A stretch of 64,000 nucleotides of DNA, taken from positions 544,001 to 608,000 of the forward strand of contig CAWCKJ010000003.1 of NCBI GenBank assembly GCA_963796105.1, written 5' to 3'. This DNA is from a candidate division FCPU426 bacterium. Lineage in GTDB: Bacteria > Oederibacteriota > Muellerivitia > Muellerivitales > Muellerivitaceae. Position 1 is the stretch's first letter. Each line of letters opens with the position of its first letter. Both the position numbers and the translations under genes were made by a program. The notes under the pieces are model-generated. The model was not told the origin of the DNA, did no database searches, and was given only the letters and a program-made list of their open reading frames with translations. Shown piece after piece: positions 44,060-54,530 of the stretch.

Positions 44060-44064
44060 TAAAT

Positions 44065-44360
44065 GCTTATCCGCAAAGTACCTGCGGTCTATTTTTTAAA
44101 CTTCCCCCTCTGAAAGAGGGGGATAGAGGGGAAGTTAGCCTTTAGGGTTACTCAACAAAAACCAATACCCCCCCAATCCCCCCTTTTTCACCCCCATTTC
44201 ATCTATATGATAATAACAAATGGAGAATGGGATCGTCCCCATGCCCAATGTCTTTGTTTTTCAAAGGGGCATGGGGGAAGGGGGGGGATAACTTTGCAAA
44301 AATCGAATCAGAAAAGCACTTGCTAAATCTTAGTAAACCACAGGGACTTTGCGGATAAAC
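44065..44360. mobile_element. ~300-bp MITE-like element with 24-bp imperfect TIRs and internal G/C-run palindromes
   Basis: GCTTATCCGCAAAGTACCTGCGGT ... ACCACAGGGACTTTGCGGATAAAC (21/24); partial second copy at 1169-1304. Confidence 0.65.
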
Positions 44361-44403: not shown

Positions 44404-45090
44404 TCATTTCACATCCCGTAAAAACGGCTCAAAAACGTCCTTTTGCCCGGCGGCAATCTCAATAGCCTCTTTCCAGGCATACCGATAGGGGGAATCAAAC
44501 TCTTCCCCATCCGCGTTCTTCTGGCAATCCTGGCAGTATTGTTCCAAATGGTCCGCCAGGGTTTTCAGGCGCAAGCTCATTTTTTCGGCCAGCTTTTTTT
44601 TGAAATCGGCATCATCAAGCTCATCCATAACCATCAACAGGTGGGTAAGGCAGACATGGAAATGATCCAGGAAAGCCTTCCGCATTTCGGGTTCACCCAA
44701 GCCTTTTATCAAAATACTTATATAGTGCCCGCGGATTTGGAGCGCCTGGCGGCATCCGGGGCACATGTCATGTACCTCCCATTTTGGAAAGAGGTTATTA
44801 TGAGTCGCGTTCTTTTCCAGGAACGAAGCGGCAATTTGGGCCTGTTCCTTATACAGGATGGACAGCGCCAAAGTGTCGCGGAAACCGGCCAGGTGATGGG
44901 CATGGTACGGGCAATAACCCCGGGACGACCTCAAATCGACCCTGGCCCCAGGCCCATTGACGTTTTCATAAAGGAAAGCGTCGAAATAGGAGTGAACCGC
45001 TTCCTTTTCCAGAACGCAAAGGCCGCAATTTTTGGACTTTTGGAATGTCTCCAAAACCTTGAAATATGGCGTATGTTTTTCCACGGTCAA
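44404..45090 (-). CDS. DUF6062-like Cys/His-rich protein
   Basis: CGLC, GYCPYH, CPGC, VCLTH motifs; TTG start overlaps the TPR gene stop (TTGA) with GGAGG RBS. Confidence 0.7.
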   Translation of the reverse strand: MTVEKHTPYFKVLETFQKSKNCGLCVLEKEAVHSYFDAFLYENVNGPGARVDLRSSRGYCPYHAHHLAGFRDTLALSILYKEQAQIAASFLEKNATHNNLFPKWEVHDMCPGCRQALQIRGHYISILIKGLGEPEMRKAFLDHFHVCLTHLLMVMDELDDADFKKKLAEKMSLRLKTLADHLEQYCQDCQKNADGEEFDSPYRYAWKEAIEIAAGQKDVFEPFLRDVK

Positions 45091-45446
45091 TTCCCTCCTT
45101 TTGTTTTTTCTTGATACCATTGCTTGAAGGTTTTTTCCAAAAGCTTCAGTAATTCATGAACCGGAGTTTTTAATTTTTCAGTCTTTGGAACAGCTAATGC
45201 TAATTCCCTGGCTTCCTCCAAACGTCCTTGTTCATATAGGCAAACCGCCAATTCATATAGAAATAAAGGCTCATAAGGATTGAGGAAAATGGCGCGGCGG
45301 AACTGTCCTTCCGCCAGCTTAAAAGCTTTGTGCTGAAGGAAATAAATTCCCAGGTTTAATTGGCCATACCCTAGGTAGGGACTTGGCCTGAGGGCTTCTT
45401 CCCGCAGGGTTTCCCTGTCTTTTCTTTTTTGACCCTTACGCGGCAT
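45087..45446 (-). CDS. Small TPR protein
   Basis: NLGIYFL...AEGQFRRAIFLNP...YELAVCLYEQGRLEEA. Confidence 0.75.
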   Translation of the reverse strand: MPRKGQKRKDRETLREEALRPSPYLGYGQLNLGIYFLQHKAFKLAEGQFRRAIFLNPYEPLFLYELAVCLYEQGRLEEARELALAVPKTEKLKTPVHELLKLLEKTFKQWYQEKTKGGN

Positions 45447-45528
45447 ATCAAAAAGCCTTTCCAGGTTCCCCCACGGCGTTGTAAAAAACTGAACTCAGGA
45501 TGGTAAACAGGGATGTTATTTCCCAGTT

Positions 45529-47244
45529 CTATTCAGTTTTAACAGACCACTCCAGCTTTCCAGCCTGTTCCAATGCCACTTGGAGATCTTCCCCTGAATC
45601 CTGTCGTCCTTCCATGAGTCCTTGGATGGTTTCCATCTCGTCCCTGACATGCCGCTGGAAATCTTTCGTCATGCTTTTGACGGTTTCCATCATGGCCTCA
45701 GTCCATTGAGTGCATAAGCGGTAAATGTGATTCTCCACCTGCCTGGGGATGGACTTGAGAAAATGCCGGTGGACCAGGGGCCGGAAAATCCACATGGGCA
45801 CCAGGAACCAGACGCCCTCAAAGGGGGTGTCAAACACATTTCCCAAGTGCATGGATAGCTTTTCGGGACGGGCCACCTCACCCCCAAAAACAGGACCCGC
45901 GTAATCGAAATGCAGCGCCTCCTTAACTTTGTCGGAAATTCGGTCTGCGAACGCCCTGGCCGCGCGGTTCACGGAAGCCTCGGCTTCGCGCACATGGATT
46001 TCCACGGCTGGGGCATATTCCCGGCCAAGCAGACCAAGTCTTTGAGTCAATCGCTGCTCCAGCCAGTTCTGATATTTTTCGGTTTCCTTGCCCAAGTGGC
46101 TTCTCCAACCCCGTATATCCATTTCCAATTCCGATTGCAGATCAAGCGCTAACCCATTCCTGTTTGGGAGAAGCCTTTCCTCAAGCGCCTGCCTGATCCG
46201 GTGGCTAGCGATGTCCTGTAGGTTATACAACTCATTATCCAGCGTGGCGATGTATTGCCATTCCCCTTTGATCAAACCGGACAGTTCCTCACGCGCCTTT
46301 TGACCCGCCTGAGCCGCCTTTAGGGCTAATTCCAGGTATCCTCGGCAGGACTTTAATAGGGCCTGGAGTTTAAAACGGAGAATTTTTTCCGATTCGAGGG
46401 AAGAATGGGACACCAAATGGTCCAAGAGAAAACGGCGCAAGGATTCCAGGGCCTCCTCGTATCCAGGTCTTGTGGAAACTGGCATGACCGTAATCCCATG
46501 GTTAAGGCGGTTTTTCAGTTGGAACCGGACATATCCAAGGATGGATTCCATTTGTTCCTTAGAGACAAGGTCGGCTTTGGTCACTAGAAGAATCGTCTTG
46601 GGGGTGCTCTCCTCCAACTGTTGTATCAAGGATAGGTCATCTTCCGACAACGGGTGGTCCGAGGATACCGCCACCAGCGCCACACCCACTTTTGGAATCC
46701 AGTCCATTGTGGCGGCCGTGTTATGGGCATGGAGGCTTCCGATGCCCGGCGAGTCCACCCAACGCACGCCCTCCCAGGACCCAATCCCCTCCAATTCGAC
46801 GTCCACGCGGGAAACTTCTTTTCGGTTCTCAGGATTTTCCCTTTCAGTGGCGTAACACGCGATGAGATTTGGGGCAATATTTTCATTGTGTCCATCCAGG
46901 TAATGGACGGTCATTTGGTCGGAAACCCCTGACATTACGCGGGTGACGACCGCCGTGGCGGGCAAAACATCCGTGGGAAGGATGTTCCTCCTCAATAGGG
47001 CGTTTAAGAGAGAGCTTTTCCCGGCCTTGAACCTTCCTAAAAGCACGATGTCCAGGGAATCGGATTCCTGGGAAAACTCCGAAAGTTTTTGAAGTGGGGC
47101 TAACAAAGCCGGGATTTTAAATCGGCGGCTGGCAGAACCGATGAACGACAGGACTTCCGTTGCCCGAAGGTGGTAGCGTTTGAAAGCTTTCTGGACGCCA
47201 GTATTAGGTTCTGGTTGTTCTTGGAAAACCGGATTCATGGCCAC
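45529..47244 (-). CDS. Bacterial dynamin-like GTPase
   Basis: G1 GRFKAGKSS, G2 LPTDVLPAT, G3 DSPG, G4 TKAD; helical stalk; hydrophobic WFLVPMWIF segment. Confidence 0.85.
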   Translation of the reverse strand: MAMNPVFQEQPEPNTGVQKAFKRYHLRATEVLSFIGSASRRFKIPALLAPLQKLSEFSQESDSLDIVLLGRFKAGKSSLLNALLRRNILPTDVLPATAVVTRVMSGVSDQMTVHYLDGHNENIAPNLIACYATERENPENRKEVSRVDVELEGIGSWEGVRWVDSPGIGSLHAHNTAATMDWIPKVGVALVAVSSDHPLSEDDLSLIQQLEESTPKTILLVTKADLVSKEQMESILGYVRFQLKNRLNHGITVMPVSTRPGYEEALESLRRFLLDHLVSHSSLESEKILRFKLQALLKSCRGYLELALKAAQAGQKAREELSGLIKGEWQYIATLDNELYNLQDIASHRIRQALEERLLPNRNGLALDLQSELEMDIRGWRSHLGKETEKYQNWLEQRLTQRLGLLGREYAPAVEIHVREAEASVNRAARAFADRISDKVKEALHFDYAGPVFGGEVARPEKLSMHLGNVFDTPFEGVWFLVPMWIFRPLVHRHFLKSIPRQVENHIYRLCTQWTEAMMETVKSMTKDFQRHVRDEMETIQGLMEGRQDSGEDLQVALEQAGKLEWSVKTE

Positions 47245-47338
47245 GCCCCAGTTCTAAAATAGGAAGTTTCAGCCTTGAGCGGAGTCACGTGGAAGGTTTT
47301 GGAAGGAAGGCTCCGGCGCCAACCACGGTACTGCCGTG

Positions 47339-47386
47339 GTAGGAGTCATCAGCCTTGAGGGCGGTTTAAGGGGAACTCCATCCCCA
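47339..47386 (-). ncRNA. Fluoride riboswitch (crcB motif) upstream of the dynamin-like gene
   Basis: GGGGATGGAGTTCCCC-TT-AAACCGCC-CTCAA-GGCTGATGACTCCTAC matches the crcB consensus, including the GGAGT/ACTCC pseudoknot. Confidence 0.9.
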
Positions 47387-47479
47387 ATAGGTATTATTTT
47401 ATAGCATGAGGGGCCGCTTGAGGCTGTTTTGTTTGGGGATTTCCAATGCCGGAAGCATAAAAAGCGAGTCTGAATGCCA

Positions 47480-48724: not shown

Positions 48725-48750
48725 AAAAAAACCCGCTTGGCGGCGGGTTC
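48725..48750 (-). terminator. Leader terminator, probable expression platform of the upstream fluoride riboswitch
   Basis: GAACCCGC-CGCCAA-GCGGGTTTTTTT between the aptamer and the antiporter ATG. Confidence 0.7.
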
Positions 48751-48793
48751 TTTACAAGTTGATGAAAGACTCCACCGCCGTAATCACTGAGCA

Positions 48794-48840
48794 GTAGGAG
48801 TCATTAGCCCCGGAGGGCGGTTAAAGGGAACTCCATCCCA
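48794..48840 (-). ncRNA. Fluoride riboswitch (crcB motif) upstream of the antiporter
   Basis: GGGATGGAGTTCCC-TTT-AACCGCCCTCCGGGGCTAATGACTCCTAC. Confidence 0.9.
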
Positions 48841-49027
48841 TAAAAGTTAATGGCGATACATTACTACAGCATGGAAAATAAAAACAATACTTTTACAATT
48901 CTTTTTCGAGATTTGTTACGAAATTTTTCCCAGCGGTTTTACAAACAATCAGCCAAATTGATCGCGCAAAGGCGCTCAACCCATACCTTTTGCGCTTCGG
49001 CGTCAATATTTTTTTTCGTAAGTTTCA

Positions 49028-49534: not shown

Positions 49535-49945
49535 TTAAGTATTTCTGTTCCGATAATAATCCATAAAAACGGAGGGTGAAACTATTTTCACTTGATGATA
49601 ACTCGAAGGAAAATGCTTAAGATTGCCGGTCACGAGCATCCCCGCTTTTCCCGCCACAGCTACTTCCAAAAAAGCATCGTCCCGAGGGTCCGATAGACGC
49701 CGGGCCAATGGTTTGGAAGCCACGACATCGCCTTTGATTTTCATTTGCTCTAAAAGAGCCTCCGTTTCCTCTTTACGAAATGGAAATTTCGGCCGGCTCA
49801 AAACCTCGGAATATTCCGAGAAAATGCGGGCATCAAAACATAACGAAAGGGCTCCCGATGAGATTAACCGTACGATTTCGCCAGGCGGGCCATACGGGGA
49901 TAAAAGACCCGAAACCAAGACATTTGTATCGATGACAACCTTCAC
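49535..49945 (-). CDS. PIN-domain toxin
   Basis: VVIDTNVLVSGLL, DPRDDAFLEVA, LVTGNLKHF. Confidence 0.9.
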   Translation of the reverse strand: MKVVIDTNVLVSGLLSPYGPPGEIVRLISSGALSLCFDARIFSEYSEVLSRPKFPFRKEETEALLEQMKIKGDVVASKPLARRLSDPRDDAFLEVAVAGKAGMLVTGNLKHFPSSYHQVKIVSPSVFMDYYRNRNT

Positions 49946-50229
49946 CTTTGGCGTTCTTTCCGAACGGCTTCGATTTCATCGTTAATTTCCTTCAAGGACA
50001 TTTTAGAAGTGCCCTTGGCCACGGACCGGCTTTGCATTCTTTCCACCGCGATCATGGCCCTGACCTGGCGAAGGGCGGCCAGGGAATCCTCCATATCGTC
50101 TTCAGTAACAGCTGAAACAAGGGCAATCGGCTTTCCATTGGACGTTAATAGAAAGTCTTTCTCCTTGGCTAAGTCGCTCCAAACCTTACCGGACTTAGAG
50201 CGGAAATCACGGACTGACACGAACTTCAT
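49942..50229 (-). CDS. Phd/YefM-family antitoxin
   Basis: MKFVSVRDFRSK..LLTSNGKPIALV; overlaps the toxin start; GGAGG RBS. Confidence 0.85.
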   Translation of the reverse strand: MKFVSVRDFRSKSGKVWSDLAKEKDFLLTSNGKPIALVSAVTEDDMEDSLAALRQVRAMIAVERMQSRSVAKGTSKMSLKEINDEIEAVRKERQR

Positions 50230-50289
50230 AAAAGCCTCCTTCGATTGGATACCATTAGTGTACACATTTGGTACACAATCGGCAATGAT

Positions 50290-50862
50290 TTAGTAGGCGC
50301 CCGTGGTCTGCCTGTAGGCGTCCCAGAACCTGCCAGTAGGCGGCCGGGATCTGCTAGTAGGTGCAACCGTGCCGACGGTGGTTCCCGACTATGCCGACGG
50401 TAGTTTCAGGCTATGCCGACGGTGGCTCTTGACCATACCTACGGTAATTCCAGACCATGCCGACGGTGGCTCCCGACCTCATGAATACAGGACCCCCAAA
50501 TCGTGCCTACAGGACTTCCGGCCTAGCTATACGGAACTGGGTTATCGGTTTTCCGAATACTGGGTTGAGCCCCCCATACTGGTTTGTACTGGGTTGGGGC
50601 TTCCAATACTGGGTTGCGGGTTTCCCGAATACTGGGTTGTACTGGGTTGGGGCCTCCAATACTGGGTTGAGGGTTTCCCGAATACTGGGTTGTACTGGGT
50701 TGGGGCCTCCAATACTGGGTTGAGGGTTTTCCAACTACTGGGTTGTACTGGGTTGAGCCCTCCAATACTGGGTTGAGGGTTTTCCAAATACTGGGTTGTA
50801 CTGGGTTGGGGCCTCCAATACTGGGTTGAGGGTTTTCCAAATACTGATATGTACTGGGTTGG
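50290..50862. repeat. Left part of multi-family tandem repeat field (21-22 bp units, then 53-bp TACTGGGTTG units)
   Basis: GTAGG at 50293/50314/50336/50357; GCCGACGG-type units every 22 bp over 50371-50459; ACTGGGTT cores spaced 23+10+20. Confidence 0.9.
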
Positions 50863-51120
50863 TGTCACTGGCCAGCCACTTTAACCCCCCTGGCCGCCTA
50901 CTTTGCCCCCCCTCTTTTGGGCACTTCGAGGGGTGCCTGTTTCGGGGACTTCGACCCCTGCCTTGCGGGGCCTCTTTTTTAGATTAATTTAGACCCATCA
51001 AACTCCTTTCACAAGATGCGTTTTGCTTCCCCAACATTGGATGATACGAAGTCCCGCGCAAATCCCGTAACCAATAGGCGCAAGATTGCACGAATAAGAC
51101 AGCATCGAACGATGGGTTTC

Positions 51121-51900
51121 TCATAGTTTTGCCTCTTTTTCCCTGCTGTGTTCTTTTTTCATTTCTTCGCGCATGGAACGGGTCCGAAAGGAAGGGCCCT
51201 GAATGACGACGGCAGTGGCATGGTGGACCAGGCGGTCCATGGCAGCCGAGGCTAGGAGGGCGTCGCCGAAAAGCTCCGGCCACTCCCGCAGACTGCGGTT
51301 GGTGGTAAAAATCAAGGAGCCCTTTTCATAACGCTCACAGATGATGTCGTAAAAATCCTCGGCGACCTTGGTGTCGAAGGGCTTGAGACCCCAGTCGTCC
51401 AGGATCAAGAGGTCGGGTTTCAGGAAGGATGCGAATCGGTTTTCCCAGGTACCGTCCCCGCGCGAGGCCGCTAATCGTTGGGCCGCATGCGAGGTCTTGA
51501 TAAAGAGTACCTCATAACCCTTGCGGCAGACTTCATGGGCCAAAGCGCAGGCCAAATGGGTTTTGCCCACACCTGAGGGACCGATGAAAAATAGGTTCTC
51601 TTTTCGCTCCACGAAAGAACAAGTACCCAAATCCAGGATTTGTTGCCGGTTGATGGCCGGGTTGAAGGCGAAATCGAACCCCGTTAGAGTCATATGGGTT
51701 GAGAAGCCCGCCTTTTTCAGCCTTCTTTGGAGTTGGCCCACTTGGCGGCGCTCCAGCTCATCCAACAGCAACTGGCCCAGGAAATCCATATAACCGATCT
51801 GGGATTCAATGGCCTGCTGGTTTCGGATTTCCAGCGTCTCCAACATACCTGCGAGTTTTAACCTTCTCAGGTGCGGCTCCAACTGATGTTTATTTTCCAT
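51121..51900 (-). CDS. istB: IS21 helper ATPase
   Basis: GPSGVGKTHL, LLILDDWG, TTNR, AMDRLVHH, GPSFR. Confidence 0.95.
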   Translation of the reverse strand: MENKHQLEPHLRRLKLAGMLETLEIRNQQAIESQIGYMDFLGQLLLDELERRQVGQLQRRLKKAGFSTHMTLTGFDFAFNPAINRQQILDLGTCSFVERKENLFFIGPSGVGKTHLACALAHEVCRKGYEVLFIKTSHAAQRLAASRGDGTWENRFASFLKPDLLILDDWGLKPFDTKVAEDFYDIICERYEKGSLIFTTNRSLREWPELFGDALLASAAMDRLVHHATAVVIQGPSFRTRSMREEMKKEHSREKEAKL

Positions 51901-51913
51901 ATATGCTTCCTCC

Positions 51914-53470
51914 TCAATTTTTATCCAGAGCCAAGGCACGGAGGAAATCCTCCGCGGGCCGGGCGAAATCGAAAGACGACTGGGGTTTGAGTGAAGGATC
52001 CGACGGCGGGTCCAACGGGTTTTGATCGAGGTTCTTTTGAAGGATGTTTTTGATGGATTGGTACGTGTAGTTTCCGAAATGGAGGGCCCTTAGACAGGCT
52101 GCCTCCAGACGGGAAGGCAGGTACTTTTCCCTCAAGCGCAGAATGCCCTGGGCTTTGCGCAGATGGTCCAGGGGGTGGGAGTGTTCCAGCAGGAGTTGGA
52201 TTAATTGATGGGTATTAGGTCCAATGGCCTGGGCCTGTTTGAGGCACCATTGTGGGGTTCGTTCCAAGAAGACCGCTTTTTCAGGGGGATAGTGGCCCGG
52301 GTTGGTGCGCCAGGTTCCCTTGCGTGTGGCCTTGGCGTGGGAAGCCACGCATTCGTGTTTGAGAAATATATCAACGGTGGTGTCGGTTAATTGGGCCAGT
52401 AGTTTTTGGCCCCGAAGACGGTAGGGAGCCGAGTAATAGGAACCTTCCACGACTACGTGGCAATCGGGGTGCAGAGTGGCTTCTTTGAAGAAAGTTGGAT
52501 GGTAAGCCGCGGTAGGCAGGGGCAAAAGGGCCTTCTGTTCCACGCTCTGGAAGACGGCCAAGGGTTGAAGCCGGGTGGTGCCATGATCCCGTAAACCTGC
52601 CTTGTTCATCACCCAATCGCGGAGTTGATGGTTGGCATCGGTGCGGCCCTGGAAGGAACGACCCTTGAAGAAGGAATTACGGACATAGGGCACGCCGCGT
52701 TCAACTTTACCCTTGTGGCGTGGAGTGGCGACGCGGCAAGGGGAGATGATGAAGCCGTAATGGTTGGCGCATTCCACGTAGGTACGGTTGGCCAAGGGAT
52801 CATAGAGGGCCGCCTTGACGATGGCGCTTTTCAGGTTATCGATTACGATTTTTTTAGGGACTGAATTGAAGAACTCGAAAGCCCGGCGGTGGCAGGCGAT
52901 CCAGGTTCTCACGTCCTGTGCGAATACAATCTCGGCGTACATATGCCGGGAATGGGAAAGGGTCATCACGAAAACCCAGGCCTTGGCTTGCTTGCCACGC
53001 GTCTCGTCCCACAAGCGGCCCAAAAGCCCGAAATCCACTTGGGCCTCCTCGCCGGGCGCAACCTCCAGCCTCACGTAGGCGGGTTTCTCATTGCGAAAAG
53101 GCTCCGTATACCTCTTCAGGGTCGAGTAACTCCCCTTCCACCCGTGCCGCTCTTGAAGCATCTCCTGGATGCGAATCAAGGTGAAATCTTCCTTCAACCA
53201 TTCTTGGATGATTCCCTTGAGGGCCTCCAAGGCATGAGCGGGAACGGGCGTGGATTTTTCGCCGTCTTCCCAAGCCTTCGCCAAATCCTTTTCCAGGGGA
53301 AGTTCCCCTTGGAGAAAGCCATGTTCTTTCGCCCAACGCACGTATTGCTTGACCGTGTGCTTATTGCATCCCAGGGCCCGGGCAGTGGGTTTGAACCCGC
53401 CCAAGGCCTGGTAAGTCCTCAAAATCTCACGAATAGTCGCCATGTCGCTCTGCCTCCCTTGTCGGGTCAT
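51914..53470 (-). CDS. istA: IS21 DDE transposase
   Basis: PGEEAQVDFG, LSHSR, DNLKSA, KGKVERGV, YYSAP. Confidence 0.95.
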   Translation of the reverse strand: MTRQGRQSDMATIREILRTYQALGGFKPTARALGCNKHTVKQYVRWAKEHGFLQGELPLEKDLAKAWEDGEKSTPVPAHALEALKGIIQEWLKEDFTLIRIQEMLQERHGWKGSYSTLKRYTEPFRNEKPAYVRLEVAPGEEAQVDFGLLGRLWDETRGKQAKAWVFVMTLSHSRHMYAEIVFAQDVRTWIACHRRAFEFFNSVPKKIVIDNLKSAIVKAALYDPLANRTYVECANHYGFIISPCRVATPRHKGKVERGVPYVRNSFFKGRSFQGRTDANHQLRDWVMNKAGLRDHGTTRLQPLAVFQSVEQKALLPLPTAAYHPTFFKEATLHPDCHVVVEGSYYSAPYRLRGQKLLAQLTDTTVDIFLKHECVASHAKATRKGTWRTNPGHYPPEKAVFLERTPQWCLKQAQAIGPNTHQLIQLLLEHSHPLDHLRKAQGILRLREKYLPSRLEAACLRALHFGNYTYQSIKNILQKNLDQNPLDPPSDPSLKPQSSFDFARPAEDFLRALALDKN

Positions 53471-53633
53471 GCCGTTCTCCTCACATGAAGTGAAAAAAGA
53501 AAGGAATGACGGTTAGAGAGGCCCTTGGCAAGGGGGTCAAAGTCGGTGGCCAGACAGGGGGTCAAAGTGACTGGCCAGAGGTGGGGTCAAAGTGCTTGGC
53601 CAGCTAGGGGGTTAAAGCTCGCGGCCAATGACA

Positions 53634-54530
53634 GTTGGGGCTTCCAATACTGGGTTGAGGGTTTTCCAAATACTGGGTTGTACTGGGTTGAGGCTTCCAA
53701 TACTGGGTTGCGGGTTTTCCAAATACTGGGTTGTACTGGGTTGGGCCTCCAATACTGGGTTGAGGGTTTTCCAAATACTAGGTTGTACTGGGTTGGGCCT
53801 CCAATACTGGGTTGTGGAATCCTGAAACCTTGGAACTGGCTTGGAACCACGGAAATCACGGCTCCGGCCAACGAAAACCACGGCACCGGATGGCGGAAAT
53901 CTCGACGTCGGACGACGGAAAGCCCGTCACCGGACGATGGAAATCCCGCACCGGACGGTGGAAATCCCGACATCGGATGGCGGGAACCCCCTCCACGTAT
54001 GGTGGAAATCCCGATTCTGCGGTCAGGACTCCCGACACTTGCGGGCAGGGCATCCAGCATCTGTGGACAGGCTTCCGACACCTGCGGGCAGGGCTTTCGG
54101 CACATGCGGGCAGGGTTTCTCGTCACCGGACGGCGGAATATCCAGTGGTGATTCGCGCAATACCCCCAAAACTCTTTTAAAAAAGCATCCTGCCCAGCGG
54201 CTGTGCAAAACCCATTTTTCCGAGGAAGTTTTGTCCCGCCACGGGACAATATTGTCACGTTAATTGGTTTAAACCCGAAATTTTGTCCCTCGGCGGTACA
54301 AATAACACCCAAGGGGTCCCAATCAAGCAACTTTTGGGCAATCGCGCAACTTCCCAATCGATTCGCGCAAGGTTGAATCGCGCAACCCTTCTATGGACTC
54401 AGGGCTGGCATCCAATCGCATGATTCTTAGCTTCTAGTCTTTACCCTGCGACGGGGCAAAATGTCGCCGAGAAACACTGCCATGTCGCCGGTAAACCGGA
54501 TATGTCGCGTGGAAAACCCAAAACTCCATT
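53634..54530. repeat. Right part of the tandem repeat field
   Basis: TACTGGGTTG units continue to ~53815; then ~21-22 bp GGAAATC/CCGGAC and TGCGGGCAGG families; then ATCGCGCAA and ATGTCGC clusters. Confidence 0.8.

Follow-up and report, generated by a model that had tools for sequence, protein, structure and literature searches.

A fluoride riboswitch leads a dynamin-like GTPase gene in a candidate division FCPU426 bacterium and in relatives across bacterial phyla

A fluoride riboswitch of the crcB-motif class (RF01734) leads a gene for a dynamin-like GTPase in a 64,000-nucleotide stretch of DNA (the window; contig CAWCKJ010000003.1, positions 544,001 to 608,000) from a candidate division FCPU426 bacterium. 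The link between riboswitch and dynamin is real, intact, and widespread, and what is conserved is the dynamin's membership in an ordinary fluoride regulon. The unit in the window is larger than the GTPase-TPR-DUF6062 set, as it adds a second riboswitch and a CPA2-family antiporter gene directly upstream. The initial annotation had the three genes as they stand but drew the unit too narrowly upstream, missing this riboswitch and the antiporter, and too rigidly downstream. The RNA and protein classes are already known; what is new is a probable dynamin branch of the fluoride response, which was not found in the literature searched.

The aptamer had been placed about 95 nucleotides upstream of the GTPase, and an Rfam scan bears this out. 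RF01734 matches at 61.8 bits (E 9.8e-15) over the full-length model (positions 1-64), above the gathering threshold of 34 bits, below which the proposal was to be dropped, and 94 nucleotides on the gene's own strand part the aptamer end from the ATG at 47238, with an in-frame GTG at 47244. Both matches that the scan returns in the window are on the minus strand. Across 30 aptamers, the two stems and the pseudoknot have 98.3% of cells paired and four pairs changed on both sides, a result that leans towards structure because membership of the set had been decided by Rfam or a motif pattern. The -10-like TAAAAT reported before the aptamer is present and is kept in a diverged second copy of the cassette, with the flanking bases differing; such hexamers lie at most 25 nucleotides upstream of 45 of 129 related aptamers, compared with 2.6% of random 25-mers. 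A strict sigma-70 promoter scan did not call the TAAAAT because no -35 fits, and the promoter and terminator scan gave counts no higher than shuffles.

Recurrence of the pairing was surveyed with an alignment of five close homologues as query. The analysis covered 160 loci, namely the best 80 out of 204 confirmed in GTDB and the best 80 out of 312 confirmed in metagenomes, the latter often short; a single-protein query over genome contigs gave 45 pattern matches and no confirmed relative, whereas the alignment query succeeded. A covariance model (R1), built from 30 aptamers of which 24 come from these loci, was scanned on all 160. The pairing, for which confinement to this one genome had been a concern, proves not to be so confined: at 25 bits, a match is present in 71 of 80 GTDB loci; it lies upstream on the gene's strand in 68 and no more than 320 nucleotides from the protein match in 43. 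At 34 bits the respective counts are 58, 50, and 26. Loci with at least 3 kb of upstream DNA and outside R1 training have a match in 50 of 53 cases at 25 bits and in 40 of 53 at 34 bits. Metagenome loci at 25 bits show any match in 57/80 and a direct one in 44/80, while GTDB loci outside the Acidobacteriota have one in 29/34, most of the five misses having little upstream DNA. Loci with a riboswitch match span 12 named phyla. Rfam's own RF01734 model confirms 9 of 20 loci chosen mostly for shortness, 2 of 7 selected because their matches were weak or lacking (two of the seven repeat from the 20), and 7 of 9 R1-positive loci outside training; some weak R1 matches therefore fall under the Rfam cut-off. 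Kinship inflates all recurrence counts, whether from GTDB, the phylum survey, or the control.

The phylum survey covers 99 genomes of the window's phylum and overlaps partly with the GTDB loci. A riboswitch is present in 31 of these genomes and the dynamin in nine (10 genes), and eight of the 10 genes are riboswitch-led: six lie directly behind an Rfam match, two of them (in G086 and G088) being distant homologues, and two are found 2.6 kb inside an operon of the make-up riboswitch-CPA2-USP-CrcB-DUF190 (USP, universal stress protein). The remaining two, in G058 and in the same-genus genome G001 (93% complete), are without a riboswitch. In G001, an IS21-type element in the dynamin 5′ end (L011:8500-10933) parts the gene from any riboswitch, and the genome gives no RF01734 match. 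The first gene behind 29 riboswitches of the phylum is CrcB in 15 cases, CPA2 in seven, dynamin in four, DUF6062 in one, and unassigned in one, with no downstream DNA in the last. As a control, 10 of 16 matches to distant dynamins in a plasmid collection were examined, and a riboswitch is absent from eight, so that the link is a property of particular lineages rather than of dynamins in general. The two positives are (i) a Lichenicola dynamin among crcB and USP genes, where the Rfam match points to crcB, and (ii) a Burkholderia dynamin among pyrophosphatase, DUF190, MutS, and enolase genes with four riboswitches.

The window's GTPase was described as dynamin-like with intact G1-G4 motifs, and both parts of the description stand. 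Dynamin_N (PF00350) matches at 70.3 bits (cut-off 27), and G1 GRFKAGKS (68-75), G2 T95, G3 DSPG (162-165), and G4 TKAD (220-223) are all in place, with G68, G73, K74, T95, D162, G165, and D223 invariant in 122/122 homologues. The family comprises 390 clusters at 50% identity (E <= 1e-30). An AlphaFold2 model built from 122 sequences (predicted local distance difference test, pLDDT, 93.6; predicted template-modelling score 0.88) runs from two N-terminal helices through the G-domain and long trunk helices to a loop (443-472), short tip helices, and a return helix. In Foldseek, IniA (6j72) and BDLP1 (2j69) rank first, followed by Cj-DLP and mitofusins, with probability 1.0. On this model, the protein is predicted to work like a dynamin of the BDLP/IniA type and not as DynA, LeoA, CrfC, or a member of a gene pair. 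Membership in the DynA, LeoA, and CrfC groups was considered and rejected on NCBIfam scores (42 vs 1600 for the DynA type, 12.6 vs 325 for LeoA, and 11.9 vs 1146 for CrfC), and a weak PADLOC similarity to LeoA, the Eleos component, covers only residues 39-83.

The tip of the trunk is the candidate site of membrane contact. Residues 475-485 form the most hydrophobic 11-residue window across the 122 homologues and are followed by conserved basic residues; F469 (95%) and P481 (98%) are conserved, and the hydrophobic segment is not long enough to cross the membrane as a helix (best 19-residue mean there 1.04). In the model, residues 469-493 form short helices after the long loop, a position that matches the lipid-interacting loop of IniA and the tip of Cj-DLP2 as described in PMC6715688 and PMC6104087, so this segment is a candidate lipid-binding trunk tip. 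Each cassette encodes one dynamin, with no second dynamin gene and no fused double head found in it. A second class of about 680 amino acids often has its own fluoride riboswitch (L032:2069-4123, L049, L061, L075, L180, and others). Its N-terminus resembles, by eye, a free-standing protein of about 148 amino acids that lies near the short class in 14 loci and has no informative Pfam match. L180 (plasmid record NZ_CP143553.1) is a fluoride island with four riboswitches and genes for pyrophosphatase, DUF190, two MutS proteins, NUDIX, enolase, and a dynamin-family protein.

The dynamin keeps regular company. Among the 80 GTDB loci, its neighbours include DUF190 (32), CPA2 (27), CrcB (20), enolase (20), P-loop ATPase (16), USP (12), metallophosphoesterase (12), MFS (10), IlvD (6), DUF6062 (5), HAD (4), and TPR (2), and gene order around it is freely shuffled. 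Over all 160 loci, a short P-loop ATPase recurs in 28 and a metallophosphoesterase in 17, while IlvD (dihydroxy-acid dehydratase) recurs in riboswitch operons at 10 (L016, L042, L046, L049, L072, L076, and others). Back-to-back divergent riboswitch pairs, one of which leads a dynamin, occur at L075, L084, L112, L140, L147, L152, L158, and L162. This pattern bears on whether the dynamin is a passenger, that is, an anti-phage or general stress protein carried in mobile fluoride islands, with an incidental link to the riboswitch. The patchy distribution, the two copies in one genome, the IS21-type elements upstream of the window copy and inside that of G001, and the weak PADLOC LeoA similarity are what a passenger would show. 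However, the dynamin stands first behind its own aptamer in 43/80 loci, amid shuffled gene order and across all those phyla, and the LeoA scores and coverage given above do not place it in that system, which makes a passenger very improbable.

The window's genome (G000; 96.8% complete) holds a second, diverged copy of the cassette at G000:C5:30470-34916 (L005:6471-10917). This 4.4-kb copy has 74% DNA identity and 67-81% protein identity and the same content of riboswitch, antiporter, riboswitch, dynamin, TPR, and DUF6062, both aptamers being kept; a cluster of ABC-transporter and His-rich genes follows it on C5. The genome's four RF01734 matches all fall in the two copies, as do its only two full-length Dynamin_N matches. 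The window's antiporter scores 92 bits with TIGR00932, under the cut-off of 238. Fluc/CrcB (PF02537) was not found in G000 at its 96.8% completeness, nor was Fluc/CrcB in G001 at 93%, unlike many members of the same family, which carry a riboswitch-CrcB-DUF190 set. The one CLC of G000 (L174) reads GHGVPE and GREGP, without GEVTP, and, compared by eye, is without the CLC-F signatures given in PMC11139923. Four riboswitches without a detectable Fluc or CLC-F make the cassette, through the antiporter, the dynamin, or both, a candidate for exporter-independent tolerance.

These findings also touch the possibility that fluoride acts on the protein as a co-activator, GDP-MgF3 or GDP-AlF4 locking the dynamin assembled on the membrane. 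Fluoride would then act as both inducer and trigger, and the dynamin would possibly shed vesicles or membrane as an exporter-independent relief. The exporter searches in G000 and G001 agree with it, as does the occurrence behind riboswitches of distant dynamin lineages (the 560-amino-acid family, the 680-amino-acid class, the G086/G088 pair, and the Lichenicola gene). On the other hand, CrcB is present in 5/8 other dynamin-bearing genomes and at 20/80 loci, so the dynamin usually accompanies an exporter, and a role as a general Fluc replacement was rejected on the same 5/8. Independent recruitment is not established by the deep dynamin tree, a quick tree with long branches that is not read for donor or order of events, and vesicle shedding is conjectural. 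Co-activation is accordingly judged rather unlikely.

Downstream of the dynamin, the initial annotation saw a TPR gene followed by a translationally coupled DUF6062-like gene, and both identities hold (TPR_16 35.2 bits; PF19538 44 bits, cut-off 27). Eight TPR homologues share a conserved N-terminal E-x2-LRP-x3-LGY motif, and all 30 Atlas matches of the second protein are DUF6062 clusters. DUF6062 homologues begin M-E-K-H, and the start is therefore probably the GTG at 45084 rather than the ATG at 45120. This GTG sits 2 nucleotides past the TPR stop, with an AGGAGG inside the TPR 3′ end, a spacing that fits coupling of the two genes. In 12 DUF6062 homologues, C58, H61, C108, C111, C145, and H148 are invariant and C20 and C23 nearly so; the two CxxC…CxxH sets likely form two metal sites, which may bind zinc. 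The predicted model is all-helical (pLDDT 88.5, 12 sequences) and has no PDB fold match at E <= 0.001 in Foldseek.

The claim that GTPase, TPR, and DUF6062 form a dedicated three-part system fares badly. Among the 160 related loci, TPR occurs in nine, DUF6062 in 12, and both together in one, counts that are lower bounds as some loci lie on contigs that end early. An obligate three-protein machine under the riboswitch would account for the gene order kept in both genome copies and G001, for L137, which has all three, for DUF6062 after the dynamin in G030, G086, and G088, and for the 2-nucleotide TPR-DUF6062 gap. It is at odds with the single joint locus, with a TPR family in 2/99 phylum genomes compared with 9/99 for the dynamin, and with DUF6062 in 42/99, mostly unlinked and able to stand alone behind a riboswitch; such a machine is improbable. 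More likely, TPR and DUF6062 are co-regulated, exchangeable, occasional regulon members and not required subunits. DUF6062 lies directly behind a fluoride riboswitch without a dynamin at L253:632-1358 (G087) and closes a riboswitch-CPA2-USP operon without a dynamin at L254 (G037), and it may be a fluoride regulon member in its own right. DUF6062 matches occur in 24/30 genomes of the family, with unlinked copies in most, and the third DUF6062 gene of G000 (L248:4469-5137, on C4) is unlinked to any riboswitch.

Switching was assessed by predicted folding. In the antiporter leader, the GGCGGUGG segment has two alternative predicted partners, the aptamer 3′ strand and the 5′ arm of a U7 terminator hairpin (about 48750-48725); with the aptamer free the leader folds into the terminator with its U7 tail, and with the aptamer blocked into the antiterminator pairing. 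The leader has a z-score of -3.46 (0/200 shuffles). With the aptamer of the C5 antiporter leader blocked, the antiterminator pairing was not reproduced. For a hand-picked set of 50 direct dynamin leaders, the pseudoknot 3′ strand pairs with downstream RNA in 47, compared with 241 of 500 shuffles, and terminator-like hairpins are found in 21; downstream pairing and terminators of this kind are expected of ON switches of the class (PMC2864571). A translational switch for the window's dynamin leader was seen in one fold, was lost once coding sequence was added, and was rejected. Read-through from the upstream riboswitch may contribute to dynamin expression. By analogy with the known ON logic of the riboswitch class, the dynamin gene is very probably induced by fluoride.

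Under the reading favoured here, a fluoride-induced dynamin maintains the membrane by remodelling or resealing it. Fluoride would bind the aptamer and turn the cassette genes on. The antiporter would counter the acidification that accompanies entry of hydrogen fluoride (PMC11139923) and restore pH. Under fluoride stress, the dynamin would attach to the inner membrane through its trunk tip and spend GTP on remodelling or resealing it. The purpose, and the weakest step, would be to hold the membrane sealed and preserve the proton gradient during pH recovery by the antiporter. Both cytoplasmic pH and proton-motive force fall in the presence of fluoride, and among riboswitch-linked classes Na+/H+ antiporters rank second in frequency (PMC11139923); DynA has been proposed to act in membrane repair (PMC6104087). 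The pairing of riboswitch and dynamin recurs in about a dozen phyla, so a protein predicted to remodel membranes is probably turned on by fluoride. Maintenance of the membrane by that protein is given about an even chance.

Metal-fluoride complexes trap GTPases, and the chief competing account is one of compensation: fluoride with Mg or Al would trap the dynamin as GDP-metal-fluoride, and the cell would over-produce it, as it does enolase and pyrophosphatase. Several partners are indeed fluoride-sensitive or Mg/phosphoryl enzymes (the enolase, P-loop ATPase, metallophosphoesterase, IlvD, and HAD counts above), and over-expression to overcome inhibition is accepted logic for fluoride-sensitive enzyme genes (PMC11139923, PMC5533749). 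Compensation implies a routine job, yet the family is present in only 9/99 phylum genomes; both full-length copies in the window's genome are riboswitch-led; essential GTPases are not among the recurrent neighbours annotated; and AlF4 density was not seen in the Cj-DLP crystal (PMC6104087). Compensation is therefore held unlikely, and membrane remodelling or repair fits somewhat better.

Several observations weigh against the membrane-maintenance reading or its foundations. In the window's dynamin leader, the alternative pairing (0.48) is matched by 65/200 shuffles, a U-run terminator is absent, and ribosome-site accessibility is unchanged by blocking the aptamer (0.29 vs 0.31). Acidobacteriota supply 46/80 GTDB loci, so these counts are not independent, and G058 has an intact dynamin gene with no riboswitch match. 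Whole-chain template-modelling scores against solved dynamins are only 0.35-0.44 in Foldseek, values that the hinge angle may explain. Bacterial dynamins are mostly encoded in pairs (PMC6104087), and the single dynamin here is unlike that majority. The neighbourhood is rich in Mg/phosphoryl enzymes (enolase at 20/80 GTDB loci), as compensation would have it, and no passage drawn on from the cited papers shows fluoride lesioning membranes.

Table 1. Cassette features in the window, all on the minus strand, listed in the order of transcription
Feature	Position	Strand	Basis or remark
Fluoride riboswitch aptamer 1	48788..48849	(-)	RF01734 46.7 bits; leads antiporter gene
Predicted expression platform of riboswitch 1	48725..48779	(-)	Folds with aptamer free and blocked
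CPA2-family cation/proton antiporter, 398 aa	47480..48676	(-)	Na_H_Exchanger 99.2 bits
-10-like TAAAAT, possible internal promoter	47396..47401	(-)	Sequence; kept in second copy
Fluoride riboswitch aptamer 2	47333..47394	(-)	RF01734 61.8 bits; leads dynamin-like gene
Leader, 94 nt	47239..47332	(-)	Hairpin with aptamer 3′ strand possible, then C/U tract, no U run
Dynamin-like GTPase, 569 aa, single gene	45529..47238	(-)	Dynamin_N 70.3 bits; IniA/BDLP1-type predicted fold
Trunk-tip segment, GTPase residues 469-493, candidate lipid-binding tip	45760..45834	(-)	Conserved hydrophobic-then-basic
Small TPR protein, 119 aa	45087..45446	(-)	TPR_16 35.2 bits; alignment of 8 homologues
DUF6062 protein, 226 aa	44404..45084	(-)	PF19538 44 bits; two CxxC…CxxH sets

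The surroundings of the cassette (Table 1) are repeat-rich. Upstream lie a toxin-antitoxin-like pair of PIN-domain and Phd/YefM-like genes (window 49535-50265) and an IS21-type element (transposase and ATPase by sequence features; window 50860-53600), of which 13 near-identical long copies are listed in the genome. This element interrupts an array of 53-bp tandem repeats, which spans about 50576-50862 and picks up again near 53634; the array is met again at about 11 places. Just downstream of DUF6062 (window 44060-44345) is an intergenic repeat with many G and C runs, dispersed through the genome with matches at about 40 places.

To our knowledge, most bacterial dynamins have no known trigger. 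If induction is true, the bacterial dynamin family gains a defined small-molecule inducer, and the physiological role of its members thus becomes directly testable with NaF. Membrane remodelling would join export, pH balance, and enzyme over-production, the parts of the fluoride response described to date, with a bearing on how fluoride harms cells and on the engineering of fluoride-tolerant hosts for organofluorine degradation. A bolder proposal is that dynamins are a major unrecognised arm of the fluoride response, recruited to fluoride riboswitches in at least two lineages, with fluoride not only inducing the gene but also, as GDP-metal-fluoride, locking the protein in its membrane-remodelling state, and with the cassette as the main defence of G000; as a whole it appears doubtful.

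Known RF01734 regulons include Fluc/CrcB, CLC-F, Na+/H+ antiporter, enolase, pyrophosphatase, and USP genes (PMC2864571, PMC11139923). The cassette shares with them the aptamer, its 5′ position, and, in the window, the antiporter, and the window's relatives add CrcB, enolase, USP, and DUF190. It differs in the dynamin-like GTPase directly behind the switch and in a genome in which no Fluc or CLC-F was found. The words "dynamin" and "GTP" are absent from the main text of PMC11139923, and "dynamin" is absent from PMC2864571 and eight of its supplements. A full-text literature search returned nothing that connects fluoride riboswitches with dynamins or crcB RNA with GTPases, though such a link may appear in bioRxiv supplements, in other subscription papers, or in the Baker 2012 gene tables; literature on bacterial dynamins and fluoride, judged by titles and the starts of abstracts, has none on a riboswitch link, and the full-text search gave no paper on DUF6062.

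The closest described operon is that of Enterobacter cloacae FRM, ppaC-uspA-eno-gpmA-crcB-orf5249 (PMC5533749), which is likewise riboswitch-led and multi-gene, with non-exporter genes that add to resistance. Dynamin, TPR, and DUF6062 are not among its six named genes (PMC5533749); the run in G016, riboswitch-CPA2-USP-CrcB-DUF190-dynamin-enolase-DUF6062, is comparable to it.

On the protein side, Nostoc BDLP1 (2j68/2j69), Campylobacter Cj-DLP1/2 (5owv), Bacillus DynA, and E. coli LeoA and CrfC share the Dynamin_N G-domain and the neck and trunk. The window's dynamin differs from them in having no adjoining second dynamin, and the searches found no fluoride link for any of them. Mycobacterial IniA (6j72/6j73) is the top fold match (E 5.4e-19), the two proteins being 16% identical in the structural alignment. 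Drugs induce IniA, which has IniC as its pair partner, while the window's dynamin is single and riboswitch-led. The two share a pair of neck helices at the N-terminus, a long loop in the trunk, and a segment at the tip, and IniA is a stress-inducible dynamin that binds lipid through its trunk-tip loop (PMC6715688).

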